This document shows, in pieces, positions 6,271-64,000 of a DNA stretch of 64,000 nt. A program made the translations under genes and the position numbers. Source of the DNA: Bispira polyomma (lineage: Eukaryota). Every line of letters begins with the position of its first letter. Within the stretch, counting starts at the first letter, position 1. The notes under the pieces were generated by a model. The model worked only from the letters and a program-made list of their open reading frames with translations. It was not told the origin of the DNA and did no database searches. The stretch covers positions 65,782,001 to 65,846,000 of the forward strand of contig OZ287751.1 of NCBI GenBank assembly GCA_965649765.1, given 5' to 3'.

Positions 6271-9099
6271 TCCAGGTATGTGTTCCGCAGGGGCACATGC
6301 TTCTTGTTAATTGATGGATAGCCGATTACCATAAGCAAAATGTTGTAAATCAAAACCGTCATATATGGAGATAGAATCTGGTGAAAATAAATACAGCCCC
6401 TCATTGCTTATATATGATATAGATTTTCTATATGGTACATACCAATTAATATAAATTAAAAGTACACTAACAGATCTGTGTAATTCTGATTGGCTGACAC
6501 AATTGCACCACCCGATAAATATTAATAGTTGAATTGTAACTTTTAAATCTTTATTTCGACGCATACCTATATTACCAAAACAAATTGGTCAGAAATTACT
6601 AACGGTAAAAATTTTGTGAAAATATGTTGAGTGTGTGTGTTTGTGTGTCTACAAGTTTGTGGACAGACATGTAAAATATGAGTATACATACCCTATTGTG
6701 TAAATAAGGTAGATTTAATGAATAGTGACTTATAGGTGTGTGAGGTAGTGAGCTAATAGAGATACTCTATTGTATTAACACTAATACTGTAGATAAATAT
6801 AAGAGATTCTATTTACATGAATTTGACTGTCATCCACATGGATCCCAATACAACTTATGTATTATATGATGGATATACCTTTAGTTGGAATGACTCGGCC
6901 ACAGCCAAGAATAAAAAGTGCACTGTGCCATATAAGGTTGCAAACCAGTGGCCCAAAAGCTGCTTGGGAACACAGTACAAATATATATGCACAGGGCTGT
7001 GTACATACACACACACAGTGATGATGTCACCACAAGATAACTGATCTCGCTTTTAATAAAATATTGCGACAAAATTTTATTAAAATCTTTTTTGATTTTG
7101 CATCATTATTTTGTTTTAATAAATTATTTTTTATGAAAATATTGGAAAAATTAAGCAAATGCTGCAATATATAACATGACCACCTTCCGTTTAAGTAAAA
7201 TATGAGAATATATCTACTGTTAAATCAAATGAGGCTGTTCTCGCTTCCTTACAACATTTGTAACACACAAACAGCCACTAGAACAACAGGTTCATACCTT
7301 CACTGCTTCTGTACTCCTATATTTTGCAATAATATGTGAAAGACGATCTTGTATATTTCATTCACACACGCAATGGCATTAAAATTGTGCCCATTAGTGA
7401 AAGCAATTCTTGTTTTAATACTATTATTATGGCCTTAATTCTAGCTAATTGTCATGATTGTCACCTGTCTTATATAGAGTATTTTTTATAGATTTGTTAA
7501 ATAAGGTTTAATATGGTAAACCTGCTATTTCTACAAATCTTGGATTCAAATTTCAATTTTGTATTACCCTTTCTAATGGTTTGATGCTGAATTTTAATGA
7601 TTGTGAAGCTTTCGGCGGTAATAGATCTTCTACAGTAAAAAAACCCATCAAATTATTTTGCATTATATTTTCAGGATCAATTGCAGAATTATCTGTGAAC
7701 CAGCAAGAAGCTCATCCATTAGGTAAAGAAAATAAGAGTCCAAAAAGAACAATCCAGTCTACTTCTCAGAATGTGAATATCGCAAAAACATATTAGCAGT
7801 GATTTAATGTCATGTGTTGGCAAAGATGTCTGACACCATATATTTTGTAAAAATTGCAGACATACAGCTGAATGCATAATGTATGTAACTGTGCATTCAA
7901 TAGTATAAAAAAAACAAGTGTTTATATATAGTTTTGCATTGCAAAAAAACATTATGAATTTGCAACAGCTACTGTTCTCACCAACTTGCTTGAATATACT
8001 GTTATTTGGTCGTGCTTAGTCACAGCATGCACGAGATTGTTACAGTAGTTGTCCAAACATGGTTAAACTTTAAGACATCAGTGCATTAGGTACTGCCTAA
8101 GTGATTTAAGAATCTCAGCGTGGGCGACCTTCAATTGTATATATTATGCTGCTGTTAATCCTGAGTTTAGCTAAATATGAAATGTTTCAGCATTATTATT
8201 TTTAATAGAAAAAAATAATACCTTAAGATGAAAATTGTTTTAATTGGACGACAGCATTGCCTATTTTCTGCATCAAATGATGTCAACAGCATGAATAATG
8301 GCGTACAGGTAACACAGTTGAGATCTCTCAGATATATGTAATGCTGTTTAAAGTATTTAATAGTAAATGGTGTTCATTAATTAATGTATAAATACCACTG
8401 ACAATCGGTGTGTAAAATTATGTATATGTTTATTTGGTAATAAAATAGATGTTACCACTTCTTGTTTTGTTTTTTAGCGATGGAGGTGGTAGATTCCTTC
8501 AAAAACATCGTGACTTCTGTCACTCATCTAGAATTAAAATTTTGTCACCTTTTATAAAATTTATTTCTGCTTCTGTCATTTCCCAGAGAGTTCACGTTCT
8601 GTTTTATTTCTTTTCAAACTATTGCTTTGTTCTCCATCATTAGTTACTACATTTGAAAATTTTGCCCTTAATATGTGTGAATATTTTTATGAATCATATG
8701 TAATGACTCCACATATGTTTTGTATAGAAACCTGGCAAGGTTAAAGAAAGTTCAGTGTTTCAATAAATGATTAAAGACATGTAGGCAAACAAGATAACAG
8801 ATAAACTTGAAGAATTGATTTTGAACTGTTTTGACTTTACCTTATTATCAAAAAAAGGATGGAAATAGTAGGATGAGTAAGATATTTCAACAATAAACAA
8901 TGTGCCCCAACTAAAGATTGCTTCACAGGTCAATTTTCTCACAGAACTAAAAATATATTGGGTGATTACACGGGTAAACTAATAATTAATGGTGACTTTA
9001 AAAAAAGTATCTGTAATAAGTTAGACAAAAAGGGCCTAGAACACAGTTAAATCTCTATATACCAGAAAAAAACAAAGTGTCATGCTAGAGATAACTATT

Positions 9100-9860: not shown

Positions 9861-10282
9861 TTGCTTTGTTTACTTTACACTGACTAGATTTTACTTTATG
9901 TTTCAAGAATAATCAAGTATCAATGTGTCAAGAATTAAAGGCAATGTTCCAACGTTTGAAGAGTGGAAGATAAAATAAAGGAAATGCAATAAAGTTACAT
10001 ATAACAACCTGTAAATCGATGGAGAACTATTTGTTGAAAACCAATTTATTCAACAAAATTCAAAACACATTTTTGAATAAATGTTCTGTTGACAATGAAA
10101 CAGAGAATAAATTGCAGGACGACATGTTAACAAGTATATTACAAACTTTCAAAGGAGAGCCTTGAAAAAACCAGGAAATCACACCCCATGTCAAGAGAGC
10201 CACAACCTGGTACAGAAAGTCCCTTTGGGGCACCTGGCCACCGGGAAGAGTTACAGTTCCCTAATGACGAAAAACATGTATC

Positions 10283-10930
10283 CAATAAGAAACCTCCCAA
10301 GGTTGGGAGTAAATATTTCAACTATAATGGGTTCAATTCGATTGTGCTGTTAGCCCTCGTTGATGCTGACTTCAGATTTATCTGGGTAGACATTGGCTGT
10401 AGTGGTTCCAGTTCTGATGCTCAAATTTTCAACCACTCAGAACTGAAAGAAAAGTTAAAAGACGGAACCATTGGGCTGCCCAGACCTGCACCACTGTTTG
10501 AGGTTGATGTCAACTACTTCCTGCTGGGGGATGACGCCTTTACCCTGAAGTTCTGGTTGATGAAACCTTATTCCAGGAGAGCATTGACTAACCATCAAAG
10601 GATATGCAACTACAGAATATCCAGGGAAGGGAGGGTCGTCGAGAATGCCTTGTGAATATTGGTCAGCAGGTTCTGGCTTCTACTGACAACCATGCCACAA
10701 CATCTTTTGGTGGCCTAAAACCTGACTTCATCCTGTGTGATATTACACAACATCCTGAAAAGCCACTACGGTAACCCATCCCTGGAGCACCCAAACCCTT
10801 AAGATGATCTGCCTGATCCTGAGGAGCATCTGGTGGGAGATCAACTGAGAAGAGAAAACCGAAATGCATCTAGAGGGGCGAAAGAGCAAAGGGATACTAC
10901 TTCATGAATGAGGGGGCAGTCCCTTGTTAA
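10283..10930 (+). pseudogene. PIF/Harbinger DDE transposase fragment (HARBI1-like, DDE_Tnp_4)
   Basis: PP..GS.YFNY.GF.SIVLLALVDA..RFIWVDIG..G..SDAQIF, LLGDDAF.L..WLMKPY, NYRISR.R.VVENA; 5' truncated with a premature stop. Confidence 0.9.
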
Positions 10931-14935: not shown

Positions 14936-16214
14936 ATATGTAATATTTGTGTGTAATATCGTAAAAACAATAAAACCTCTATTTAGTGAATGTTCTTGGG
15001 ACCGGGTCAAAAATCTTCACTACACAGAGGTGTTCTATTTTTGGAGGTAGCTAAGTTTAACAGCAATAACTCCATGAAACACATTTGTACACCTTTATTT
15101 TCAAGTAACATATAGATATGCACACAATGAAGCAATAATAAGTAAGCACATTTTGTGATACCAACATGTACACAAACATTTTGTTGTTTTCAGTGATACT
15201 TTAGGACTTCTTCTTAAAGTAATCTATCAGAGTTGACCGTTTTGGACTTAACTATTCAATAGTGAAAATATACTGTATTAGTAGGCTTGGGATCAGGGGT
15301 TTACTGTTCATAGACATGTGTTTACTTTTCAGAGGCAGGCTTTACTTCCTTTGAATAAAATTATGATATGATATTCTTGTAAACCCACTTATTTTCAGTA
15401 GCAATTATAATTATATTGAACACAAACATAAGTACCTTGTATCTTACCAAAAGAAGTTGTTTATCTTGCAGAAAATAATTTTTTTCTTGTGAAGAAACAA
15501 AACATGATTCTAGATGCTACAAATATTTGCGTTTACATTTAAAGTACATTTCACAAATAAATGATTACACACATTATGTACAACTTTTATTAAAAAAAAC
15601 AACAACTACATAAATTACATGTGTGTACATCATCTTCTTGAACTAATCAATATTGTCATGTGTGATAAAAGCTTTAATATTCACTGTGTATGAAAATTTT
15701 GAGATATTTTGTTTTTAGATAAAGAGAGACACAATTTGAGGTAATCCACATTATTTTTCCTTTAAGAATTTTTTATATCTAATAAATCGAAATGATCATG
15801 TGTAACACACACTGTTATACAATAGATTTAATAATTGGCCTTTGGGAAAAATTATATGTAAGAAGCATAATAAAATAAAGGATAAATATTTTGATTTGCA
15901 GTGGTGGGATTCAAGCTTTAAACCTCTCAATCACAGCAGGTTAAACAGCAACTGATTGCAATCATTCATAAAGACACTGTAACTGAATTAAATATATACT
16001 CAACCTTTATTATATGAACATGTCGGAAGGGAAATATTTTTGTTCATATAAAAGAATATTAATATAATACAAGAGACATCTGTGCAAAAACACTAGGCAA
16101 ACATAAATTTGGGAGAGCAGAATTGGCTTCATGAAATTGAATTTATGGATAACTGAGGTTTGGATAACAAAGGTTCTACTCTAAATACAGATGTAGGAAT
16201 GAATTTAATCTCTA

Positions 16215-16670
16215 TATATTGGTTCTTGATAATTACACAATGCAGCCCAACTTGGAAAGATTTTACCAAAGAAATAGGCATTTCACCAGTAAATATTCTG
16301 TAGGTCTTCAATCGCCTTATAACTTGTTCTACAAGAATTCTGGAATTTGTTGTTTTCTTTGTTTTGGCCACAGCTTCTGTTGGCATTTGAATATCTCTTC
16401 GAAGACCTGGTGGAACATCTAATGAGATCAGTCTTGCTTCACATTCAGTTATCTCTTTATCACTGACACGCCCACCATAGGCAGGAGAAAGAAAAGTTAT
16501 TTCAGAGTTTAGTGCAACAGCAATGAGCAATTTTACCGTGTTGTGGTGTTTGTAAGATGACAAGCAGCATTTTGAAGAACAGGGTCGTTAGAAGTCTTAC
16601 TAAAAACCTCTGAGCAATCAATTATAGCTCTAACATTTGGAAGCCTGGGAAAACGACTTGGTTTAGAAGC
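16215..16670 (-). pseudogene. ISL2EU transposase, C-terminal (DDE_Tnp_4) half
   Basis: VRAIIDCSEVF, SSYKHHNTVKLLIAV..ITFLSPAYGGRVSDKEIT, RILVEQVIRRLKTYRI motifs. Confidence 0.88.
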
Positions 16671-16840: not shown

Positions 16841-19682
16841 CTGTTTTCTTACAGCTTAGTGAACTGTAACTAAGCCTTATTTCTGTAAACACTGATAAAT
16901 ATTCTATACTTAAAAAAAGTTTTGCTTGAAACTCATCAAAACCATTATGTTTATCACACAGGTTGTTCTTATAGGTATTACTTCTCCTTGACGTTTTTTT
17001 ACTTGCATACATGTACACTTCTTTTTTTATATATAACTTTTGTACAGGGACAGCTTTATTGGAACTTTTTATGTTGTTCATTATAAGTGATGCTAAATAT
17101 GATTTACACATGCACCATGAATGTAAAACATGTAGTTTTTGCAGTAATTCTGGAGATCAAGAATCTGAAATAACTTTCTTTGATACTAGTTCTGTGTTGC
17201 TTTATGGAGACTCCTTGAATACTTTTAATGGTGTTCGGTGAAGAACTTGTAGTAGTATCAGCAAACTGTCAGGGTCTTCAAAACAAAAACAAACGTACAA
17301 AAGGTGATAAACCTCGAGAACTTTTGAAGAATTGGCGTCCGATCTCTTTGCTTTTGGTACTATATAAACTTGCCTCTGCAACAATTGCAAACCGTTTAAA
17401 GAAGGTACTAAATAAACTTATTTCAAAATCCCAAACTGGATTCATTGGCGGAAGGTTTATTGGGGAGAGTACAAGACTTGTTTATGATATCATGCATTAT
17501 ATTGAGAAGAACCATTTACAGGGTCTACTTATGCTTGTTGACTTCCAAAAAGCATTTGACTCAGTCTCATGGGGTTTTCTGTCAAATGTACTTGATTTCT
17601 ATAAATTTGGAAAAAGTTTCTGTAAATGGATAAATGTCTTAAACAAAAATGTAAAGGCATCAATTCTCCAATCAGGTTTCTTGTCGAAGTTTTTTGACAT
17701 GCAGAGGGGTTGTCAACAAGGAGACCCTATAGCTCCATATCTATTTCTACTATGTGCTGAGGTTTTATTTCTCATGGTTGATAATAACATAGGCATTAAA
17801 GGAATTATAATCAACGAACATAATTATAAAATCACACAGTTTGCTGATGATACTACAATATTCCTTGATGGAAGTAAGAACTCTATTGGCAACATTGTAC
17901 ACCCTAGAAATCTGTGGCCCTCTATTTGGACTCAAAGACTCAAAGTGAACACTGATAAAACCAAAATAATATGGCTGGGGAAAAAGAAACATTGCCACGA
18001 TAAGTACAATACTTTAGAGAATTTGAACTGGGGCTCCACTGATTTTAACTTGCTAGGAATACAATTTTCTGTGGACTTAGAATACCCACCATGAATTTTA
18101 GTCCAATCCTAAATAAAATTAATAAAATTTTAAACAGGTGGAAAAGAAAAAATTTGACACCACTTGGTAAAATTACTGTGCTCAAAACTTTTGTCATTAG
18201 TAGCCTAAATCATATAATTGCTTCCCTACCATCTCCTGATAAACAAATATTAACTAGTTTAAATCGCTTACTTTACTCATTTTTTGTGGGATAACAAGCC
18301 CAATAAAATAAGCCATAACCAAATTACAAATGATCACTTGCATGGAGGACTAAAAATGATAGATATAGAATCTTTCATAACATCTCAAAAACTCACCTGG
18401 ATGAAATGTTTGTTTCTATCATCAGAAGCATCTTGGGCTAAGCTTTTTTCAACCATATCAAATCCAGAAAAATTATATTTTATGGGACCTCTCTGGCCTA
18501 AAATTTTATCAAAAAGGATTTCCAACCCATTTTGGAAGGAAGTTCTTCTAGCCTGGGCTAAGTTACTTGGGCAAATTACATTTAATCAGGGTGATGCTAT
18601 ATCAAGTCCTATGTGGTATAACTCAGTAATTTCTATTGAACCTTTATTCCTACCACACTGGTATTATGCAGGAATATGTACCCCATTGGGTCTTTAAAAT
18701 CATGATGGTAGCATTATGGAGTTGGAGCAAATATGCCAATTATATAAAGTGAAAACCAATTTTCTAGAATATTTTAGAATTAAATTATGTTTAAAAAGTT
18801 TTCTGGCTAAATTTAATATGAAGAAATATCCTTGTGACAGACTGATCTTTCCTCCTTATTTGTAGTCGGCATTTTTATGAATTATTGAATCAGCAATATG
18901 ATAACTATCAATTGAGAAATAGATGGATTGATACTATAAATACTAATATTAGTAAACAAGATTGGGCCAATATTTACAAAGTATGTTTTAAAACCCTAAG
19001 AAGAAATTATTTTATTTGGTTTCAATACAGAATTATTCACGGAATTTTGGGTACAAGGGCTTATTTAAACAAAATCAATGTAAATATTAATTCCTCTTGC
19101 TACTTCTGCAATATGTATACTGAGACAATAATCCATATGTTTACTTCTTGTCCAGTGGTTAATCAATTCTTGAATGACTTAAAATCTTGGCTTCAACAAT
19201 TCTTTGGTTTGTACATAGATCTAAATCCAATGGGTATAGTGTTTGGTTTATTGGAGACGGAAGGAGATTTTCCCCCAACAATGTTGTTTTTATTGTGGCA
19301 AAAAAGTATATATTTGGATGTTCTAGAAATTTAAAACCTTTAAATATGTTTGGTTTCCAGAATTATTTCAGAACTATATATATTGACCAAGAATATATAG
19401 CTAAAACAAACTACCAGCTTGCCAAGTTTCAAGCAACTTGGTCTGTGTTTAATAGAATAATAGAGAGCTAATTTACATTTTTTAATCTCCTAATTAACTA
19501 AAACTTTTGACGTATTCACATGTAGACTTTTATGATTGCTTTGCATGTTGTAAACTCACTTTATTTCTAAACTGAATCCCTGCTCATGAGTTTTTACATA
19601 TTTTTATTCTTTTTGTTTTGAATGTACATGTATGTCTTTTGTATATATGTTATAAACAAAAAAAAAAACAATAATAAAAAAA
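16841..19682 (+). mobile_element. 5'-truncated L1/Tx1-clade LINE with poly(A) tail and 8-bp TSD
   Basis: ORF2 motifs NWRPISLL, DFQKAFDSV, QGDPIAPYLF, QFADD, C-terminal CxxC..ET..H...C; A-rich tail ~19655-19684; AACTTAAG duplicated at 16833-16840 and 19683-19690. Confidence 0.92.
17228..19471 (+). pseudogene. L1/Tx1 ORF2 (reverse transcriptase), frameshifted, with endonuclease domain deleted
   Basis: Fragments 17228-18094, 18091-18294, 18284-18697, 18885-19334 and 19187-19471 are collinear pieces of ORF2. Confidence 0.92.
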
Positions 19683-19990
19683 AACTTAAGTAAAACACCT
19701 TTGGATTTAAGGGTGCCATAAGGTCAACTCAAATTTAAGTTAAGTTTTGTATAAGGTCACCTTATATTCAGATTGTTTGCAAAAGGGGACAAAGTAAGGA
19801 GACCATAAATTATCTTAGGGGCAGCATAAGGTGACGCCAACTTAAGTTTAAGAAAAGTGTTAATTTTGAAGGTATGCGAGATAAGGAGACCATATGTTGG
19901 CCCTAAGTTGAGTTTAAGCATACTCAAAGATATGCACTAATGAAGATTGACTCTAAATGAGAACGTTATGTACTTGAGGTTAGGTTGACC

Positions 19991-20974
19991 TTATGGGTAC
20001 ATTATGTACTTTAGGTTAGGTTGACCATATACCCCAACCAGGCCCGCCTGAGCTGAATCTGTGATATACCTCCACACACAATCCGACATCCAGGTGCCAT
20101 GACGTTGAATGTCCTGAATGTTCACGTTATCAAATGCAAACGTGGCACCTGAACGTCGAAAGAAGTGGAATGTCAGATTCGCCTGGTGGCAACCCAGCAG
20201 TTGGAGGACATTCTTCAGATGACGTTTGACACGAGTGTCAGTCAGGGGCCCCCAAGAACTGCCAACCTTGAACTGAAACAGTGGGGCATTACTACCAGAG
20301 GGAGTCAAGGCTAGGACATTTCTCAAGGCTTGTACAGGACACAGGCTGGAATTAGGGATAGCTGGAAGTGTCAACAATCTAATAGAATTGTTTGTTTGCA
20401 TTGTTTTAGACCATTTAATAAGTAACATTACATAACCTGGCTTAAACAACACATCCCCCTGTGCTAAGTGTTTCAGGGGAGAATAAGCCACCACAGAGTG
20501 GGGACATAAATTTGACAATCTTAGAAAACTGAAAAAGCTGGGTAAACAAACTGGCTTGAAGATTTGTCCCATATACGTACAATCACATTTAGCAATTAAT
20601 GCTTTCAGCAAAGGAATGTCAAAAATACTTCTTAATTTTGCTTGCAGGGGTCTATTGACTGCAAGAGCCCGATTGAAATATGAAACCCTAGGATCTGCAA
20701 AGCAGTCCACATTTACATGATAAAGAATACATTTAGACTTCACAGCTGACAAGTAATTTACCATTTGAGCAGACGACACAGAGTTATAATTTAAAAACTC
20801 TAGAAAAGACAAAAGTCTGAATACATTCACCTGAGTAGGAAGCCATTCCATGAAGGCCCCAAAGGCGATGAATATCTTGAACATGTTGTCGTAAGCTCTG
20901 GTTGTGGAAGCAGCAAAGGCAGAGTGTAGCCTCTGACAAGCTCTACTTGTAAGCAGTGAATCGACAGGGTGCAT
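19991..20974 (-). CDS. Tyrosine recombinase of DIRS-type element #1 (open, 327 aa)
   Basis: Catalytic signature: R (FLRLSNL), K (KWSKT), HxxR (HFFRRSGAT), HGTW, Y (VWRY), plus CPV.AL. The last ~15 residues probably read into non-coding sequence. Confidence 0.93.
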   Translation of the reverse strand: MHPVDSLLTSRACQRLHSAFAASTTRAYDNMFKIFIAFGAFMEWLPTQVNVFRLLSFLEFLNYNSVSSAQMVNYLSAVKSKCILYHVNVDCFADPRVSYFNRALAVNRPLQAKLRSIFDIPLLKALIAKCDCTYMGQIFKPVCLPSFFSFLRLSNLCPHSVVAYSPLKHLAQGDVLFKPGYVMLLIKWSKTMQTNNSIRLLTLPAIPNSSLCPVQALRNVLALTPSGSNAPLFQFKVGSSWGPLTDTRVKRHLKNVLQLLGCHQANLTFHFFRRSGATFAFDNVNIQDIQRHGTWMSDCVWRYITDSAQAGLVGVYGQPNLKYIMYP

Positions 20975-21009
20975 GCCTAAAATATTTCAGAGACAACAAA
21001 TAATACAGC

Positions 21010-22540
21010 TTTAAATAGTCCTGTCTATACGGGATCTTGGGTATGTCCAGTTTCTAAAACACTGACAACCACTTGGTTATCACACTTAAATAGCACCTTT
21101 TTTCCATCCAGTCCCTAGACCAAAGTTGAAGGGCCACAAGGATATTTATCATTTCCACAGAAGCTATATTGTTACTAGTCATATGGCTTGGTACATTCAA
21201 CTCATAGACTTGATTTCCACAAATGCGTCCCATGCCAGTTAAGGAGGCATGTAACTCAATTTGGGTGTGTATAGGTATATGGGATTAAGAAGGTCACGCC
21301 ATTAAACTGACTTACAAATGTGGTTAACCAATTAAGGTCCTGTTTGAATTCCCGTGTTACGCTGAATTTCTCTTTACCATAATTATAACACAGTAGTTGC
21401 AACATTCTGTTTAAAAACACTCAAGCATATTATATGCACTTTGCAACATAGAGTAATGAACCCAATAGTGATTGCAGTTCCCTTTTTGTGCACTGGGTCT
21501 TAGTTCTCCAGCTAGCACACTTTTCCCTGATTTCCGTTAATTTATCATCGGGAATAGAATTTGTGAAATCTTCTGTGATTACCATGATTCCCAAACAGAT
21601 AGCCTGTGTATTGGGGCCCACTAATTTTTGCTACTAACAGTTAAACCAAGTTCAGATAATAAAACCTGGAACCATAAATGCGCCCAAATTTGCTGGGTAG
21701 ATTAACGGCTAGGAAATCGTCCATATAATTGTGTATATTATAGCCCTGTGACATCATGATAAATCTGACTGTGTCGGATAATCGTTGGAATATAGTGCTT
21801 CCGTTCTGATAGCTGAATGGAAGACACTTATCAACATAATAGTTCTTCCATTGTAGGCCTAACAAATTTATATCACCCGGGTCAATAGGGACGTGACGAA
21901 AGGCCCTACTGATGTCCACTTTAAATATCTTATAACCTTTGCTAAGTCTAATGACTTCATTTCCTATATTATCAACCGACGGGTAAGACAGAAGAAATTC
22001 TGTTTTCAAATAAGAAGTGGCAGACACCCCTGTGTTTACTGAGTGGCCACGTGGCCAACTCAAATCTACTATTACACTCATGTTGGTAGAACTTGATTTA
22101 TCACGGGTCATCATTGGTGAACAATGTGGGTCTTTAGTAGGTGGTTTAGTAAAAGGTCCTAATATGGTCCCAAATTGACACTCGTTCCGCAAATATGTAT
22201 CTACATGTTCAGGGAACTTATCCGATGAGCTATCAGTTACATTCTTGGACTAACTAATATTGTCCCGTGTTACATCCAGAGGGAACCCATATTTGACTAA
22301 GAGGGGAAGTTGCCAATCCCAGTATTGTTCAAGGTAACTTGCCCATTTATCAGCATTTAATTGCGAGGACACGGCCAGTTGTAAACCTTTGTAATTGTGC
22401 CTGCCATATGCGCGCAACTTTTAATGCAATTGAAATATGTTAAGTCTGTGACTAGTGGTACCATTGTCCCCCACTTTACAACCAAGTGTTGTAAGTGGTG
22501 TGAAACCATAATGCACCTTGTTTTGTTTTTGCCATTCATT
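21010..22540 (-). pseudogene. RT and RNase H of DIRS-type element #1, frameshifted
   Basis: SPMMTRDK, VIVDLSWP.G.SVN, FKVDISRAFRH, CLPF, NYMDDF; LQSLLGSLLYVAKC; RNase H motif EMINILVALQLW..KCDN.VV. Confidence 0.92.
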
Positions 22541-23330
22541 GTAAGTTTTTTATTTTGAGCCTTATTTCAAAGTTCTCGTTTGTTTTTCCTCTTCTTTAAT
22601 TGTAAAGCATATCTGTCATTTGACCTAGTGGTATTTATGTGTTTTTTGTTTACAACTACCTCCTGGCCGCTTTGTGCGACCCAAATTGTATTGTCCTGAT
22701 TTAACTTTGTAACTACTTGTTGGGTTCTACTACTTTTATACTCAGTGTCCCCCTCAGTATTTGCACCCCCCCCCCCTCCCCCCCATTGTTTTTTGTTTTC
22801 TGTAATCTCTGTTTGGTCAAGGGGCCAAACCTATTGTGGAGCGCGAGTCCCGAGGTAACACCTGCCAAAGTGTCTTTATTAGCACTTTCTTTTACTATTC
22901 TCGGCCTGCCCTGTTGTTTCCTTTCACAAGTGTTATGTTTATTTTGTGTCGTAGAAACAAAAGGGGAGGGCAATTGTCCAGAACGTTGACACCTAAATCT
23001 TTTTGAATGCCTTTAGATGTTGCTGCCTGATTTACACGTTTTCGTTCACGGGTTGTAAATACATCCCTTTTATTAGTACAGTTTGCATTCTTAAAACTTG
23101 TTTCGACTTTCTGAAACATTAGTACGTACACAATTACGGTGGTGTTTGCTATTTACATTTTTGACAGCCTGGCTATATGTACAGCCAGTCTGTCTGCCTC
23201 TACAATATACAATCTTTACATAAGATTTTGTCCCGATTTTGTTTGTCGAATAACTGTAACTCCTGGAAGCTAGAGTTATAAAACACCTGACTAAAAACAG
23301 ACTTGTCCACTGCAGTTAAGCAGTAGCCAC

Positions 23331-24336
23331 TTAGTTTTTTTAACTCTTTTTACTGCATGTGCTACTTTTATGTGTGCTCTCACATGCCTCACAAACGTTC
23401 TTGAAGTAAGTACTGTCCGTCTTATGGCTGGTAGGATACTTACAGGTTCCCTCTTGGAAGAACTTGCAATTAGCTGTGGTTTGTTTAGAATTTTGACTAG
23501 TTTTGTTAGCACCACGATTACTGACCAGCACTGATACTAGTTACGTGTCTTTGCACATGTGCCCTTCTAAGTCTATCAAGCTTATGTACTTCCGACTACT
23601 TGAGCTTATCCATTTCCATTTGAGTCAAAACCACAGCGTGGCTAGCTTTTGCAGCCTCCCAGGAGAAATCCTCCGAGTCCTCCATTAAGTTGGACATGTA
23701 CTCTAACATCATTTCCTTAATTTCATTACACTTTTCGTGTTGTACAATTCTAGTGAAACCACAAACCCACTGAGCGATAGAGAGGTCATCATAAGTGGGT
23801 CTTGTTCGAAAGTTACCAGTTAATACATGATTCTGTGGCAATTCGACCACCTGTTTAACAATGATATCAACACCCCCGCCCCTTTGGGATTTTAGTTTAC
23901 CTTGGCTAGGACTCTCATTTATTTTTTTGAGTTCAGCCAAACGCAACTCGACCTGACTTTGTATCGGGGTATTTGTGCATAGAAAATCTACAGTGGGTAT
24001 TACATTTTCTGGAGCCGAGGCTTCAGAATTACCATTCACAGAACTACTACTGGTACCAGTATGAGTAGAATTACTTTCCTGATTTTTGCTGTGATCTCCC
24101 GCCAACGCTGCTTCAGTAAGTTGAACACGCTGATTGATCCGTTCCATTATGGCACTCATTGTAGTAATATTTGGTTTAGTTACCCCAATATCTGTAGCAT
24201 AGAAGTCAACATTGGATTGATCAATGTGTTCAGCGTTGGCAGAAGATCCCTCACTAGCAGTTGCAAGTGTACAGGCAGCACCAACGTGCCTGGCATGTTT
24301 TCCAGAGCATTTTGAACAATTGAACACCGGAGGCAT
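23331..24336 (-). pseudogene. Gag-like ORF1 of DIRS-type element #1
   Basis: N-terminal CxxCxxxH..C motif; GKLKSQRGG; YDDLSIAQWVCGF; DFSWEAAKASHAVVL; C-terminal Cys/His fingers. Open to 23596, then disrupted. Confidence 0.85.
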
Positions 24337-24584
24337 CGTAACACACAATATTTAAAATAGTTAAAGTTTAAAATGATAAAAGCAGTAACAAATGTAAATT
24401 AAACATAAAATTTCACGGAAAATTTTCGCTTCTTGTTTCAAAGTTGTTGTTCTGTGAACATCTATTGTTTAAAAGGCAGGTGCATTTAAATGGCTGGCCT
24501 TTTATAGTAGCCGCATTCATTCAGGCGTTACAAATAGACTGGTACCCCAGAACTGAACTCGTCGGTGCTAGGACGCAGCCTTAT

Positions 24585-25345
24585 AATTATTGCTTCTTTC
24601 CTTGCTCACTTCACCTGTTTACCAAGAACTTTGGGCATAGTAGATACCAAGTATAAAATATTTGTTGACATAATGTCATAGAGATACCAAATCTCTGCTA
24701 AATCTCCATACAAAAGTCAATGTAAGTAGGAATTCTTCCTCACTTCTAAATTTTTTTTCAGGTCCAAACTTTTTAGGACTCTTGCTTGAAATTTATTACT
24801 TTGGTGGAAACTCTCTTTATTCCTCTTCACCTTCTACAGACCATTGGCGAAAGACAGTTATGTAATTGTGTAAACAAAGACTTTTTGAGCAATCCTGGTA
24901 TCTTTCTCATATATCAATACACTGTTATATAATCTGCTTTTAAGAATTTTTTTTTAGTAGGAACTTTTGGTGGTGTATTTCTGAGTTTCAATTTTTCTTT
25001 CTGCGATTACTGTCTTTGCATTTCAGCTTCTGCACAACAGCCAAAAAAAAGAAATATTATTACCCTTGCAGGCAGTGGACAACACCAAGTTCTTTTTCCC
25101 TTGGTTCCTTGATCACTTACTTGGATATGACTCACAGGTGACTCGAAAGATTCTGCTAATTTCCTTCTTTTCATATGTCTCTCTATTCTTCTTTCACATT
25201 CAATCATTTGTCTCTTTGGTGTACTAGTAATTGGGTTGAGATACAATTCTGGAACGCTGGGTGCGCTGATGTCGGCTCAGTGTCAATAAAGTGGTAAGAA
25301 CATACCACATGGTTGTATGTTGGCTGCAACCATTTATGCGGTATA
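24585..25345 (-). pseudogene. ISL2EU transposase, N-terminal half (THAP finger and HTH_Tnp_4)
   Basis: W.P....VVCSYHF....P....P THAP motif (~25250-25335); EEEFLLTL and LA.RFGIS....QIFYTW HTH motif (~24640-24745). Confidence 0.8.
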
Positions 25346-26194: not shown

Positions 26195-29100
26195 TTAGCA
26201 GGGTCCACCATACTGCAGAGCATACAACAGCCAGGGGTGGGTACAATTAACCTTAGGAGGGGGCCAAAAAGGTAATGCTGCAGGGAAAATTAAGTCAAAA
26301 AGGGGGGATGGGGATATTGATGTGGTAGTAAAAAACAAGTTTTGCTGGCCTCAAGAGGCTATACTAGGTGGCACTACCAGGCAATGTATATCCTATGATC
26401 ACCTGTCATTGACCCAGTGTGTCCAAGGTTTTAAGAAAAATATTGTAGAGGAGCACGACTCTGACAAAGAAAAAATGTTGTACATGTCTGATTTAATGGA
26501 TCTCGTGGCAAACTGCTAAAGCTGTGCAGGCAGTACTTTTATGTGATATGGAGAGGGGGCACTAAAATAGGAAGATTCCCACAGAATGGATCGCATTCGA
26601 AGGGCTTATGCCCAAAAACATATAGTACCAACCAAAAATAACTGGGGAAAAACTACTGATGCTAATCGCAAGCACTGGTATTGTAAGCCCTATAGACTGG
26701 TTCATGCAGCCAGACAAAAGATCACGAGAACGGGGGTAAAATTCATAAACATATATGTGCGTCTTCCCTGGGAAGAGGTAGGTGAGTGGTCATCCATAAA
26801 AGAATTGTATGTGTGGTAAAAAAATTTTCCATTCGAAAAACAAGTAGCCAGCTGCTCAACGTTCTTTTAAAAGGGGGGCAGCAATGTAAATAGCAGAAGT
26901 AACACGGGCCTTCCACGCAAGGCAGAACCAAAAGTGGTGGGTAATGTAGTGAAGAAAAAACAATGTGGTGTGTCATAATAATGTTGGTCAAATATGCCTT
27001 ACACGAGGTGTAGCTCAAAGGGGTGTTAAATCCAACAATCTCAGTAACATATCACCAAGTCAAAATAGGGCTCAGGTATGTGAGTTTTATAGAACTAGAT
27101 GTTCTTATAATTCAAACAAGTCACACAAACAAGTAGAAGCAGTGTTAGCATGTAAAATAATGACTGGGTCAGGTGTATGCATTCCCAGAGGGGACAAGTC
27201 AGTAAACAAATTATAACACACAACAGAAAAAAGGGGTTCTTCCAAATTGGCAAAGGCCACAATAAACAATGCATGTGTCACCGAGATGGTTGTAAAACAA
27301 ACGGAACCTCTAGTGGTTACTACAAATAGTAGTGATGTAGTAAGTAGGTGTACTGGGGGGAGTGCACAAAAGACAAAACAAGGGGAAATACAATTATCCC
27401 ATTGTGTGGGCGGGAGTGAAAGTCAAGAACAATACACGTGTCAAACTGTCTGCGAAGTAAGTGGGAAAGGGACTGAAGAGGCTGATTGCAATTTAAGTGG
27501 GACAAAGGGACATTACACAATAGCTAGTTAATTGAAACAAGCCCTTTGTTTGACATTAACAGACATGAGCATGACGACAAGTTTGTTCACTCCATTCTCT
27601 ACAACAATAGGGACTTGACGGGACATGTAGACAAGTGTTAGTGCACGAATTGTGGCAGGAGCAAACACTTTAATTATGGCTTTGTTCCTCAATCAGGGGA
27701 CCATGGTGGCCTAGTGGTTGGCAAGCATTGCGCTTTAAAATCACTGATCTCTCACCTCTTGGCGGCGTGAGTTCGAATCCCGTCGATGCCTATGTGGGAA
27801 AAGTGGTAGTTCCTTACTGTGGGCCGCTGGTTTCAGTGCAGAACCTTGATCAACTGTATTCAGTGTTTCCTCCAGCGTTTCCAACTACCCGTCCCAATAT
27901 AACCTAAACAGGTACTAGAGTGGACGTTAAATATCCAAATTCAAATTCAATCTATGACCATAGAAATGCTGACTTTGTCTTATAAAGAGACGCTTTCCTA
28001 ACAGGGTTGGGGGCAGATGGAAAAACTTGGTATATCATCTTGGACTAGACAGGGGTTACAAAAATTTGAGTATAGTGCCCTTAGAGATGATTAATATTCT
28101 GTTGACACTAAGATTATTTTATGGACAGTGGACTGGGAAAAGAGTGTTGATAAAGTGTGACAATGATGCAGTGGTAAAGGTTCTGCAATCAGGCAAGGCT
28201 AAAGACCCCTTCCTGGGGGCCTGTGCTAGAAATGTTTGGTATCTAACTGCTTTGGTAGATGTGGCAGATCTACATTACATACATGTGTTAGGAAAACTTA
28301 CTGTCTAGATGGCAAAATGCTGTTGAGAATAACAAAATTGTTAATATATGTTGAACAGCCAGTAAGGCTTCCAGTGTCGGTTGACATGTTAGAACTAGAT
28401 AACGATTTATAAGATATTAAGTTTAAAACCTAGAACTAATGATACTATACTTTGTTGTAGGTGACAATATGCTGGCCAAACTTTCTGGTCAGTCGAGTGC
28501 AAGACTGCAGAAGGCATTTCGACCAAAGACTCAGCAGCGCTAACATGTTGTTTAAAACATTTGTGTCATTTTATAGTTATGTAAAAGTTGAGTTGTCCGA
28601 TATTAACCTGGAAGTAGTGTTAGCCTTCTTGGAATGCCTGGTGGTTAGTGGAGTCCACATGATAAGTGATTATATCTCAGCCATAAAGGCAAAATGTATA
28701 ATGCATAACCTTCCTTATCAATGCTCAGACCAACCCAAGGTAAGATACTTGTAAAAGCAGTTAGGATAAATAGGCCAGTGACAGTAACTCGCAGAAATAT
28801 AATGGATGTACTGTAAAGATTAATTCATTATGTGAGCAAATACATCAAGGCAAGGTCTACAAGGCTGTGTTTTTACCAATTTTCTTTGTTTTTTAGGGTC
28901 TCAAATATTGTGACTGATTCATTACAAACTTTTGATAGTAACAGGCATTTTAGCAGGTGGGGATATTTTCTTCACTAGGTCTATTGTCAAGGTTTTAATA
29001 AAATGGACCAAAACAATGGAAGACAGAAATAAGGTGACTCACACCTTTGCCCATAAAAAGCCCTGCGTGATGTATTTCAGCTATATAACCCTCAACAACA

Positions 29101-29770
29101 TGAGCCCTTATTATAGTGCAGAACTGCTGCAGGTTGGCAAGTGCTAACGGATACCTGACGTTCAGGTGCTACATTTTCTTCTACTGCAAATGTACCAATA
29201 CAACTAATTAAATATCATGGCACCTTGACATCTGATTGCGTGTGGAGGTACATCCAGGCGGATCAAAGCTTCGGGAGCAAGTAGCTCGTTCTTTTCATTC
29301 TATATTAGCATAATGGCTATATAAATGCAGCACTACACTACTGTTGGGCTTGAGGGAAATTTTACTGTTATGTTATGCTATTACTGTTCATTAAATTTAC
29401 TTACTTGTCAATATATTCAAAATTATGCACGTGTTAATGTTACCTTAAATTGTATTATTAAATGTTAAATCAAGGAAACATTAAGGTCCCCTTAAAGTGA
29501 CGTTAAACCAACCTTAACTAGAAATATTGAGTGTGAAGTTAAGGTTACCAGAAGACATAATGTACCAATTAAAGGTTTATCAGTATACATAATGTACTAA
29601 TTCAATGTGTATAACTAACTTAACATGTATACTTCATGGATCTGTAAATGTATTGTAGTAGTAGTAGCAATAACCTAAATTTTATGTATAATAAAATAGT
29701 AAGTTCAATTCATGTGTTTTGAGTGTTCTTCCCCTAGGGTTGGTGGGGCCTGTCATATTCTTGCAACTAA
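26195..29770 (+). mobile_element. DIRS-type YR retrotransposon #2, degenerate, RT deleted
   Basis: Gag (GKIKSKRG, WPQE.ILGG, YDHLSLTQCVQGF) 26200-26847; RNase H (LEMINIL, KCDNDAVV) 27955-28410; YR (RL..AF...T, IKWTKTM, HGT.TSDCVWRY) 28461-29310. Ends are approximate. Confidence 0.88.
27696..27948 (+). mobile_element. tRNA-derived SINE
   Basis: A box TGGCCTAGTGG, B box GTTCGAATCC, (AAATTC)n tail; near-identical to 32787-33038. Confidence 0.92.
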
Positions 29771-44250: not shown

Positions 44251-45672
44251 CTAAACGGAATTAGTATACAATAACTGCATGAATTGCTACAAGGTCATAA
44301 AAAAGACAGCTGCATATGTGTGTGCTCAAACTGCAATCTATAACTTAAATAAGGCGGAAAAACTGGCTAGAATGAATGTTTTCTGTGTTGGTATATAGAA
44401 CATGTGAAAAACAGTTTTCGTTAAACCATAGTTGCTACAGCTGGACAGAAAATCAAATGTAACACTAACATTATGGATTATTTGTCAAGAGAGAACAAAT
44501 GATGATCTAAGATCATAAATATATACAACAACAGCATAAAAACAGACGAAAATAAACCTAACAGAATTGTAGACAGCAAATTAAAAGGTTTGTCAGTTAT
44601 TGCTCAATTTCCAAGAGGATTGCACCCCATTTGTGACAAATGCATTTCTTAATGGAGTTATTGAGGAGAAAATATTCACTGTGGGAGATGCTTTAAGCAG
44701 AGTCAATTAGATTTTCAGGGCAAACCAGGGGAGCTTGTGAGGGTGTGGGGGAAGGGGGAAGGACGGACCAAAGAAGTGAGAGATAGAGAATGAGGGGGAG
44801 AAGGAGATTTGGGTGGAAATAGAAACTTTCTGATCCACCAGAACATGTCATTGCAATTTTCAACAGTTAGGTGGCAGGATGTACTGACAGACACTTTGTG
44901 AATTGCAACTTAAAACAGTTTAGCACAGAGCTTTCTATATAAGATTGATGTGACGTTATCTTGTACATTAATTTTATATGTGTTACTTTCATATTTTAAC
45001 TAAATGAGTAAGAAGTAACAAATTCACTGCATCAATAAATAGTTAGCTTGTGACTGGCTGTGTATTGTGTAATACATTTATGGAACAGCTGCATTTAAGG
45101 GAAAACAAAAGATCATTGTACATTGAGTAATCTGGATATATTCTCTCTTTCTGTGTTTGTGCGAAAGTGATTGTCAGAGTTGAAAAGGTATCAAGTAAAA
45201 CTATAGATATTTCTGTTTTTGTTTTGGGTTTCAGTCCATTGTCCAGAGCACTGGATTATGTGTGGGAGGTGTATTTTTCCCAAATGCATGCCTTTTAAAT
45301 ATGATGGCAAAGTGTGTCTCTGTGTAAAGGTGATAACCTTGAATTAAATGTCTTAAAATTCCTTTCGTTGGAAATGATATGACATGTTTCTAGGAAAAAA
45401 TGTACTAATTAATGTGGGGAAAAAGCGGCCAATATAACAGTTATTATGATGCAGACTGGGAGAAATATATTTGCATAATCAGAAACATATTGATAATCGG
45501 TCTTTGATCTGTGTGATAATTCTTACTTCATTTCTCAATCTGGCAGGTGATGAATGGTAACATTGCCATGGACAGTTTAAACCAGATAGAAACTATATGT
45601 GAACTAAGATAACATGTGTGTTAGTGTTAAAAATTACCCTGTTACCCAACCTGGCATGTGGTAAATGTTGAC

Positions 45673-46899
45673 ATGGACAGTTTAAACCAGATAGAGGCTA
45701 TCTTTCACCACTACATTGTTCCAGTAATATGTGGCTTTGGCATGGTGTGCAATGTACTCAATCTGGCAGTGTTGTCCAGGAAACACATGAAGGATTCTCC
45801 ATACTCCTACCTGATGGGCTTGGCAGTGGCGGATCTCTCTGTACTCACACTGTCCTTCATGCACAATGTCTTCTCCTGTCGCATTGGTAGAGGATTGTTT
45901 GCTTGGCAGGTATTTGATGCCTACGTGTACCTACCATTTGCTAATGTGTTTGCCAACGCATCTGTATGGATAACCGTGATGCTGACTACTGAGCGATGGA
46001 TCAGTGTGAAGTTTCCTCTTAAGGCCAAGGAGATCTGCACACGGTCTTTGGCCAGAAAAATAATTGTGACGACATTCATACTTTCCTTAGTTATTAATAT
46101 CCCAAGGTTTATGTGCCAGAAGGTGGAACAGAAAGGACAGGAGTACCAAACCAACTCCACCTTGTTTGAGAGAAGTGCATTTTATAAAGGGGTCACCTGG
46201 TTTTACGTCTTTACCATACATATCATTCCACTTCTACTCCTCGTCTCGCTGAATTCCTGCTTAATAGCTTTGGTCTACCAAGCTGACCGTAGACGCAATG
46301 CCCTTCAGGTGTCCCACCGACAGATGAGAGAGGAACATGCTATCATCCGTGAGCAGACAAGACTCACTATCACCTGCATCAGTATCATCGTATTGTTTTT
46401 AGTGTGTATCATACCTTCTGCTTTTTCAAACAGACCGGTGGCATATGCCCTGTTTGGGGGTGATAAGACAGTTGCTAATTTCTTAGATACCCCTTTCTAC
46501 CATGTGTTAAAAGTCATCACCAACACACTGGTGTTTTGTAATCTATCCTTGAACTTTGTGCTGTACTGTGTGTTCAATAACAAGTTCAGGCACACTTTGC
46601 GGTATCTCTGTAGGGATTGTATGCACCGCCTCATCCACAAGGGTGAGCAGAAAGAAAGACGCCGGCTTTCCAGACGTTCTAGCAGTTCATCCAGTAGCTA
46701 TGTCCGTGGCACCAATGCCCATGGTTTCAGGAGGTCCACCGGGAACTATATCCCAGGAGGGACTACATCCCAGACACTGATGTTCTGTCATGCAGAGGCT
46801 TACCCTCTCACCAGGAGTATGTACCACACAAGAAGAACTGGGTCACGGAGACACCGACTGGAACTAACCAGTGTGTCCGAGGTTTCTGATGCCATCTGA
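45673..46899 (+). CDS. Class A (rhodopsin-like) neuropeptide GPCR, FMRFamide/sex-peptide-receptor-like, coding region intronless as seen
   Basis: Seven hydrophobic segments; GxxxN in TM1, YLMGLAVADL in TM2, ERW at the DRY position, NFVLY..FN.KFR in TM7/H8; Ser/Arg-rich tail. First in-frame ATG at 45673. Confidence 0.93.
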   Translation: MDSLNQIEAIFHHYIVPVICGFGMVCNVLNLAVLSRKHMKDSPYSYLMGLAVADLSVLTLSFMHNVFSCRIGRGLFAWQVFDAYVYLPFANVFANASVWITVMLTTERWISVKFPLKAKEICTRSLARKIIVTTFILSLVINIPRFMCQKVEQKGQEYQTNSTLFERSAFYKGVTWFYVFTIHIIPLLLLVSLNSCLIALVYQADRRRNALQVSHRQMREEHAIIREQTRLTITCISIIVLFLVCIIPSAFSNRPVAYALFGGDKTVANFLDTPFYHVLKVITNTLVFCNLSLNFVLYCVFNNKFRHTLRYLCRDCMHRLIHKGEQKERRRLSRRSSSSSSSYVRGTNAHGFRRSTGNYIPGGTTSQTLMFCHAEAYPLTRSMYHTRRTGSRRHRLELTSVSEVSDAI

Positions 46900-54900: not shown

Positions 54901-55039
54901 GAGGTTTATAGTTGTAGTTTTTTACTTGGTAGTGTTTAACTTTTGCTGCAGAATATATTTCATAACGCTTGATTTTTTAGTTTTGATTGTCAATATTATT
55001 AAATTTAAAAAATATGATTTTTTAAATTCTTAGTGAAAC

Positions 55040-55855
55040 ATTTTAATCTTCTCAGTTCACTACTTTGATCTTCTCAGTTACCACTTTGATCTTCTCAGTT
55101 ACCACTTTGATCTTCTCAGTTAACTACTTTAATCTACTCAGTTAACCACTTTGATCTTCTCAATTAACTACTTTAAGCTTCTTAGTTAACCAGTTTGAGA
55201 AGAACTTCTAAGTTCGTTACTTGATTTGTTCAGTTCATTACTCTGATCTACTCGGTTAAGCACTTTGTTTGATTTCACTTAACCAATTCGATCTTCTCAG
55301 TTCATTACTCTGATCTTTTCAGTTAACCACTTTGTTTGATCTTCTTGCTAACCACTTCGACCTTCTTAATTCAATACTTTGATTTTCTCAGTTAACCACT
55401 TTGATATTTTCAATTCATTACTTTGATCTTCTCAGTTAACTACTTTTTTATTTGACTTAACCACTTTAATCTTCTCAGTTAACCACTTTGATCTTCCCAG
55501 TTCATTACTTGATCAACTCTGTGTATTACTTTAATCTTCTAAGTTAACCACCTTGTTTGATTTTACTTAACTTGATCTTCTGAGTTAACTACTTTGATCT
55601 TTTTAATTAACTACTTTCATCTTCGTCTGAGTTGACTACTTTTATCTTCTGATTTGATCTTTTGAGGTTCTACTTTGATCGTTTTCTGAGTTAACTACTT
55701 TAATCTTCTTAGTTAACTACTTTGATCTTCTGAGTTAACTACTTTGATCCTATTAGTTAACTACTTCAATCCTCTGAGTTATCTACTTTGATCTTCTGCG
55801 TTAACTACTTTATTCTTCTTGGTTAACAACTTTGATCTTTTAGGTTAACTACTTA
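55040..55855. repeat. Minisatellite, ~21-bp unit (TTAACTACTTTGATCTTCTCAG-like)
   Basis: Several dozen contiguous degenerate copies. Confidence 0.95.
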
Positions 55856-56340
55856 TAGCACTAAACAGTATTTTTAGAACCAAGACCACTAAACTGTCTT
55901 ACAAAGGAAGATGGCAAGACAAGGGTGGTAAGGATTGTCTATAAATATGTATAGATTTCCAAGCATGATTTGGGTAATACCCCATGCCAACAAAATGGTA
56001 TTGCATGACCCTTTAGTTTTCATTGTCAATATTATTAAATTAAAAAAAATATGTTTTGATTGTCAATATTGTTAAATTAAATATTAATGAATATTGCTTT
56101 TCTGTGCATAATGTACACAGTCTTGATAACGTTATGTAGCCTACCAAGGTTGACACAAAAGTGTGATGGGCAGAAATGTTAAATTTATTATTTGTGTATA
56201 ATTTGGTGTACAATTTCTACAAGATCACCAATTCCTGCCTTTTAACAACTGGGGGAAAACAAATAAAGATAAAAAAATTAGGTGAAAAAGAACTATATTT
56301 AATTGGTCCAAAAGTGTGAAAACCCTGACTTGCTACTAAC

Positions 56341-63459: not shown

Positions 63460-63709
63460 CTAAGTAAAAACACACAAGTAATTCAGTTTTTATATATTTG
63501 AAATTAAAACAATATCTTACCCAACTTAGTTCATGCTTGGCTTTCTGCACAGAAAGGTACATAGATTAGATATATTTCTTTCAACGACTTTCACCCCATT
63601 TTCTTCATTTAAGTGTTAAAGTTTGAACTTATCTAAAGGCTTTAAGCACTGATGAAGATTTTAAAAACAGAGCCTTTCTTGCAAGAGTTAACACCTAATA
63701 TGTCTAGCT

Positions 63710-64000
63710 AATATAGACACAAAATTACCTGATATAGCCACAGATCTACCAGATACAGACACAGAACTACCAGATATAGACACACAATTACCGGATATAC
63801 ACACAGAGAGCTACATGCTTGGAATGGGCAGTATTGATACATTTTATGCTATACAGCTTTTGATAGATTTACATTAGTTATTAATATTATGATAGAGACA
63901 CAGAACTACCTGAAATAGACATAGAATTACATGATATAGACACAAAACTACCTGATATAGACACAAAACTACATGATATAGACACACAACTATCTGATAT
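63710..64000. repeat. Minisatellite, ~22-bp unit (GATATAGACACAAAACTACCT-like)
   Basis: Degenerate tandem copies in two blocks, running off the window end. Confidence 0.88.

Follow-up and report, generated by a model that had tools for sequence, protein, structure and literature searches.

A Ngaro-type element in the window

The window, a stretch of 64,000 nucleotides, carries on its minus strand a tyrosine recombinase (YR) retrotransposon in which gag, RT/RNase H and the recombinase follow one another in this order from about 24586 to 19697 (Table 1). All three are broken, and the window copy itself is dead. The RT open reading frame of the window matches RVT_1, and relatives match RVT_1 and RVT_3; on the recombinase of the relative L218 the match to PF00589 is sub-threshold (E 0.0019, under the curated cut-off). 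No protease or integrase domain was detected in the element. A methyltransferase domain after RNase H was not found by Pfam in two unbroken pol frames, and pol ends about 35 residues past the RNase H motif. L218 has split direct repeats that are 100% identical, with A at 1553-1715 and 7117-7279 and B starting at 6442 and 7850, and the resulting A1…B1-A2-B2 arrangement, with the internal repeats after YR, is seen also in L036 and L034. The window copy keeps A1 and one B, and a second A repeat was looked for within the window and not found. The accessible text of three sources defines Ngaro elements by the order gag, RT/RH, YR, by A1…B1-A2-B2 split direct repeats and by the lack of a methyltransferase (PMC9210276, PMC4157794, PMC3266345), and the same order, split direct repeats and lack of a methyltransferase are found here. 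A DIRS1-like element does not fit, as the repeats are direct instead of inverted terminal repeats with an ICR and there is no methyltransferase domain. By these structural definitions (repeats, gene order, no methyltransferase), and not by an RT tree with named references, the element is of Ngaro type. In the family, L217-L219 and other G000 matches with identical scores make up a very young subfamily, with many 360-codon gags of equal score.

Table 1. Positions of the element's features in the window.
Feature	Position	Strand	Remark
A1 terminal repeat, 5′ end of the element	24434..24586	-	Matches A repeat of relative L036
gag, ending in CCCH- and CCHC-like zinc fingers	23331..24336	-	TAG at 23598-23596; frame change near 23525
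Predicted phase-1 splice donor G/GTAAAC in gag	23895..23901	-	GT at this codon in 23/23 copies with the motif (30 examined)
Early in-frame TAA	23340..23342	-	Last A is X of the heptamer; in 7/11 clade matches and 72/613 copies
Slippery heptamer A AAA AAC, in frame with gag	23334..23340	-	Exact in 81/93 placed junctions and 613/650 pattern matches
Family-wide gag stop, TAA in the window copy	23331..23333	-	93 copies: TGA 44, TAA 43, TAG 6
Putative stimulatory hairpin, 7-bp core and 6-nt loop	23307..23326	-	CTACTGC 23326-23320, loop TTAACT, GCAGTGG 23313-23307; 7 nt after heptamer
Start of pol, -1 frame	23200..23334	-	44 open codons, then TAG; 10-nt insertion breaks the window copy
RT / RNase H core of pol	21034..22546	-	Several breaks; tblastn against pol of an unbroken relative
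Predicted phase-1 splice acceptor (…TATTTTAG/) ahead of YR	20977..20990	-	Sequence pattern in relatives
Tyrosine recombinase (YR)	20042..21007	-	51% identity to YR of L218
B-type repeat	19697..19995	-	One B kept in the window copy

Several other features were noted in the window. On the plus strand, likely LINE sequences (RT and zf-RVT open reading frames, 17219-19334) adjoin the element's 3′ end, pieces of gag, RNase H and YR at about 26283-29254 are left from another YR retrotransposon that is more distant, and a single-exon open reading frame of 422 codons at 45631-46899 encodes a rhodopsin-family GPCR. Fragments of DDE_Tnp_4 are found at 10131-10655 and 16129-16587, and degenerate tandem arrays of 22 bp and 21 bp at 55012-55877 and 63683-64000, respectively.

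The earlier note had proposed that the recombinase is expressed as a spliced Gag-YR protein, and the splice sites fit this proposal. The gag donor is in phase 1 and has GT in every copy in which the motif was found, and a T-rich (58% T) phase-1 YAG lies exactly 19 codons before the YR motif in 13 of 14 relatives. Because donor and acceptor are conserved in phase, splicing of Gag-YR is supported at the level of sequence rather than RNA. In the window, the donor at 23901 and the acceptor at 20977 (minus strand) predict such an mRNA. A look-up of RNA data listed no holder of the window's sequence, a result that carries no information on expression.

The gag-pol junction and its conservation

Read on the minus strand from 23345, AGT and TAA lead into AAA AAC, a second TAA, GTGG and the hairpin CTACTGC-TTAACT-GCAGTGG. 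As had been claimed from the window alone, A AAA AAC lies in the gag frame, in which the two zinc fingers at gag's end are also read (…STCSKKS, stop, KN, stop), and the stem-loop follows 7 nt later. The open -1 frame, put at about 45 codons, measures 44 when counted from the C of AAC and breaks at the 10-nt insertion that separates the window copy from its relatives. Contigs of three runs (one study, possibly of the source sample) cover 23331-23448 with zero differing letters, and at position 23325, the U of a G-U pair, every counted contig has the family's C instead. A single copy proves little, because its hairpin alone is unremarkable (-11.5 kcal/mol, z -1.55, with 17 of 200 shuffles equally good): the signal of the window copy alone is within chance, and that of the whole family is far beyond it. 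A chance A-rich stretch beside a hairpin, with no role, would be consistent with a z of -1.55 in AT-rich DNA. It is refuted by the comparative data, in which synonymous positions, frame and pairing are conserved family-wide, and we regard its probability as negligible.

We searched the element's own genome (1.04 Gb), which gave 43 DNA matches and at least 150 protein matches, this being the number scored. Of 106 non-redundant loci that were looked at, 93 allowed the junction to be placed; the other 13, with truncations, insertions or upstream indels, were omitted from the junction counts, and on re-scan the motif was visible in 8 of them. AAAAAAC is exact in 81 of the 93 and a stop follows (Table 1), in a sample in which L079-L138 were mostly chosen for an unbroken gag match, so that the junction, heptamer and frame counts are biased against early stops. 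Pattern counts over the whole genome avoid that bias but require the 5′ arm of the hairpin: A AAA AAC followed by a stop and the hairpin gave 613 strict matches, with 0 for the reversed-pattern control, and freeing the three synonymous positions of the heptamer gave 650, just 37 more. The copies are related to one another, and these counts overstate their independence. Counted by cluster (n=22), the third base of the codon that leads into the heptamer is A in 20, AAA is used in 21 and AAC in 22, where the gag background is 0.21, 0.62 and 0.36, respectively (about 5% jointly). The codon before the heptamer varies in meaning (Ala, Ser, Thr, Val or Leu) and yet has A as its last base. A fixed codon is seen at just two of the 61 conserved gag columns of 16 representatives, and these two are the Lys and Asn of the heptamer. 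Judged by codon usage, therefore, the heptamer is conserved at the nucleotide level. At the protein level, the second finger is present in 88 of the 120 Gag homologues listed from other assemblies, and in 80 of these 88 K-N occurs within 16 residues after it, be the next position a stop, E or D; these homologues are known as proteins, with the K-N codons out of view. In L008 and L012, which are not sisters on the tree, AAA AGC replaces AAA AAC, and recombination is possible.

The frame of pol agrees with a -1 shift. RT could be viewed in 88 copies, and a reading that sets out from the heptamer arrives in RT's frame without meeting a stop in 26 of them for the -1 frame, in two for the 0 frame and in none for the +1 frame. 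In intact copies, then, pol does sit in the -1 frame, with no stop between heptamer and RT, as the earlier note had asked to be checked. Of the three frames, -1 stays open longest in 82 of 93 copies; it reaches 815-865 unbroken codons in four subfamilies, and has stops just upstream of the heptamer. At one locus, L176 (= L238), gag and pol share a frame owing to one additional A upstream of the junction.

Pol could instead start at its own AUG, whether ribosomes reinitiate there or a separate transcript is used, and such a start would likewise avoid the early UAA described below. A conserved ATG of pol's own had been named beforehand as a result that would speak against frameshifting, and a candidate does exist: most subfamilies have an AAA-AUG (Lys-Met), with A at -3, at a distance of 36-41 codons into pol. 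However, the stretch between the hairpin and the first common Met has no -1 stops in 13 of 13 representatives, varies in length by whole codons, and shows pN < pS in 76 of 78 pairs, which places the codons ahead of Lys-Met under selection at the protein level. Several intact pol frames lack that Met and have their first at codon 68 (L155), 116 (L164), 146 (L205) or 220 (L168). Since the earlier codons are selected and stop-free, and intact frames with their first Met at 116-220 exist, translation appears to enter upstream of Lys-Met. An AUG start would also leave the fixed codons of the heptamer unexplained, and we consider it very improbable.

The putative stimulator is a short, simple hairpin. 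Its core stem begins 7 nt past the heptamer, is extended in many copies, and doubles as His-Cys and Ala-Val codons. Across 32 chosen copies 85.8% of cells are paired, a value that none of 500 shuffles reached and that compares with 21-47% in slid controls, although relatedness of the copies can inflate this statistic. The check for covariation in the stem had a divided outcome. The outer pairs covary, with two-sided changes at pair 16-37 (CG 10, GC 5, AU 1) and at pair 24-29 (AU 22, CG 3, GC 1). The 7-bp core is nearly invariant in the 32 copies, including all five third positions of the pol frame that fall in the stem; it gives no covariation signal because it barely varies, and the covariation term of RNAalifold is about 0.

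The same hairpin offers a possible splice acceptor. In this alternative, the gag donor would be joined to a CAG that lies in the 3′ arm, the C-TRA of the stop would act as branch point, and the product would be a Gag′-Pol whose mRNA leaves out the early UAA. The donor looks real and is in phase 1, the hairpin CAG is likewise in phase 1 and invariant, and the CTRA lies about 21 nt upstream as read from the alignment. Against this, the 15 nt before the CAG contain 19% T, compared with 58% at the YR acceptor, a competing AG lies in between in 18 of 29 copies, and the CAG is buried in the stem. Splicing would moreover leave unexplained the A-run and the homologues with K-N-E or K-N-D, and we think it very improbable. 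Another apparent acceptor, TTTTTAG about 45 nt past the stop, was rejected, being in phase 2 and out of phase with the donor.

We conclude that this is the conserved gag-pol junction of a Ngaro-type family, at which ribosomes very probably slip by -1 on A AAA AAC to make Gag-Pol. Most ribosomes would stop at the gag stop and release Gag; some, paused by the hairpin, would slip back by one base through tandem slippage of tRNA-Lys and tRNA-Asn; and a third product would come from the spliced mRNA that joins the 5′ part of gag to YR. The earlier proposal that Gag-Pol is made by frameshifting thus finds agreement among the frame, the conservation of the heptamer and the ends of the stem, all of which are sequence data. 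The scheme is not universal in the wider group, because a distant relative, L240:90-3272 (25% Gag identity), carries no heptamer and reads gag and pol in the same frame, with a single TGA between them, an arrangement that suggests readthrough instead of frameshifting. A metagenome scan returned one distant locus.

Copies with a stop before the heptamer

In the window copy the codon directly before the heptamer is a TAA, whose last A is the first base of the heptamer. Such a TAA is present in 72 of 613 genome-wide copies (about 12%), the window copy included, and TGA and TAG were never found at this codon among these copies. The gag frame is open to the heptamer in most copies and is closed in the window copy and the others of the 72, where the in-frame UAA blocks the plain mechanism. 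The stop had been taken as decay of this one copy, a view that does not hold. In the window's clade TAA occurs in 7 of 11 matches, on basal branches; the youngest clade has GCA, and in another TCA and TAA interleave. In a sample chosen only by gag protein similarity, TAA runs along ladder-like successive internal branches. It is present in every copy of group B1 (7 of 7) and of group C (4 of 4), and in ladder A in 10 of 13, the remaining three having indels in the A-run. Behind the TAA the heptamer, the second stop and the hairpin are kept, and in two TAA copies gag is unbroken and so is pol, at about 830 codons.

Pol bears traces of selection in these lineages. By counts obtained through pairwise projection, the shared changes in pol are mostly synonymous when compared with singletons: 22 N/50 S vs 123/90 in ladder A (p 7e-5), 15 N/42 S vs 55/35 in B1 (p 4e-5), and 11 N/46 S vs 144/138 in five TAA copies of the window's clade (p 9e-6). 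Group C has few changes (3 N/1 S, p 0.34), and in ladder A neither the first 60 pol codons nor the linker gave a significant N/S test (p 0.47 and 0.6, respectively). The gag and pol trees agree for the TAA lineages. By these tests pol stays under purifying selection in the TAA lineages; with the TAA shared across branches and pol under selection behind it, private decay is excluded. In other assemblies, two protein clusters each have 5 of 7 full-ended members that end three residues short of S-K-N, as seen at the protein level. Editing of the UAA from A to I was rejected, as no TGA, TAG or TGG occurs at that codon.

The frameshift could be real and the early-UAA copies nevertheless be dead ends, arising from a mutation hotspot by the A-run or spreading as gag-only passengers copied by the Pol of siblings, with their own pol never translated. 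The interleaving of TCA and TAA on the trees of some clades would fit such a history, as would the exclusive use of TAA, the variable length of the A-run in several copies, and the ability of DIRS-1 RT to act in trans, which is described in the accessible part of one source (PMC7192593). The TAA is, however, held over the successive internal branches of ladder A, B1 and C, the shared pol changes are mostly synonymous in ladder A, B1 and the window's clade, gag and pol trees agree, and the CAG-TCA family seldom has TAA (about 23 vs 2 by hand count). Neither a hotspot nor trans-complementation easily accounts for selection on pol in clades that are all TAA. We see the passenger explanation as possible but doubtful.

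If pol is translated in the UAA lineages, to which the window's clade belongs, a second step would be required before ribosomes arrive at it. Readthrough of the UAA followed by the normal slip is the likeliest route, if a tentative one, and is favoured because it best explains the persistence of the heptamer and the hairpin. A -1 slip one to three codons earlier, on A/G runs, is a somewhat fainter possibility: slippage at the stop, on A AAA AAG or on G GGG, would yield a product in the same register, but the sequence around the stop in the window copy does not suit it. A codon compatible with P-site slippage precedes TAA in 51 of 72 copies, compared with 30 of 89 before TCA or TTA (hand counts). 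This excess is a hint only, because the lineages are non-independent and the window context (G AGU UAA) is unfitting. Splicing or an AUG that bypasses the stop may take the remaining weight. A broader reading, to which we give a little less than even chances, is that of stop-gated double recoding in replicating lineages, in which ribosomes would have to get past a UAA serving as the first slippery codon, by readthrough or by slipping on the A/G run ahead of it, and would only then make the -1 shift driven by the hairpin. Across more than one host genome, families would toggle repeatedly between a sense codon and UAA at this single position, as a dial of the Gag:Gag-Pol ratio.

Relation to known systems and significance

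Frameshifting by -1 is a known mechanism, and X_XXY_YYZ with a spacer and a structure is the gag-pol signal of retroviruses. The junction described here shares with the retroviral and LTR systems the heptamer A_AAA_AAC, a spacer of 5-7 nt, a stem-loop, and a pol in the -1 frame that needs no AUG. It differs in belonging to a YR retrotransposon with no detected protease or integrase domain, in having the gag stop directly after the heptamer, and in the roughly 12% of copies in which a UAA supplies the first base of the heptamer. In the text available from one survey, A_AAA_AAC is among the shiftiest heptamers, the spacer is usually 5-9 nt, pol is in the -1 frame in 28 of 51 animal LTR retroelements, and the terms DIRS, Ngaro and tyrosine recombinase do not appear (PMC5009743). 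For Ngaro elements, frameshifting was proposed at the overlap of pol and YR (Poulter and Butler 2015, as quoted in the accessible part of PMC13003380), whereas the present signal lies between gag and pol, and YR has the hallmarks of splice sites instead. "Shifty stop" or stop-hop recoding, as in potato virus M and a subset of sireviruses with a conserved UAG and a stem, likewise has a stop in or beside the recoding signal; the former case is viewed with caution and the latter is unresolved, according to the same survey text (PMC5009743). In contrast to these, the stop found here precedes an intact canonical -1 signal and alternates with sense codons within families. Our literature search found no gag-pol slippery site in YR retrotransposons, and Goodwin and Poulter 2004 and Poulter and Butler 2015, which were beyond its reach, may mention one. 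On comparative sequence grounds, we regard the frameshift signal as real and well supported; its type is known, its setting is new, and it comes with a puzzling stop-before-slip variant.

The expression of the three proteins of YR retrotransposons has barely been tested, and this family offers one scheme for it: Gag by default, Gag-Pol by -1 frameshifting and Gag-YR by splicing. The early-stop lineages pose the question of how pol is kept under selection behind a UAA. In this family, moreover, nature has provided a 35-nt recoding cassette in hundreds of variants, among which sense and stop versions of near-identical cassettes exist.
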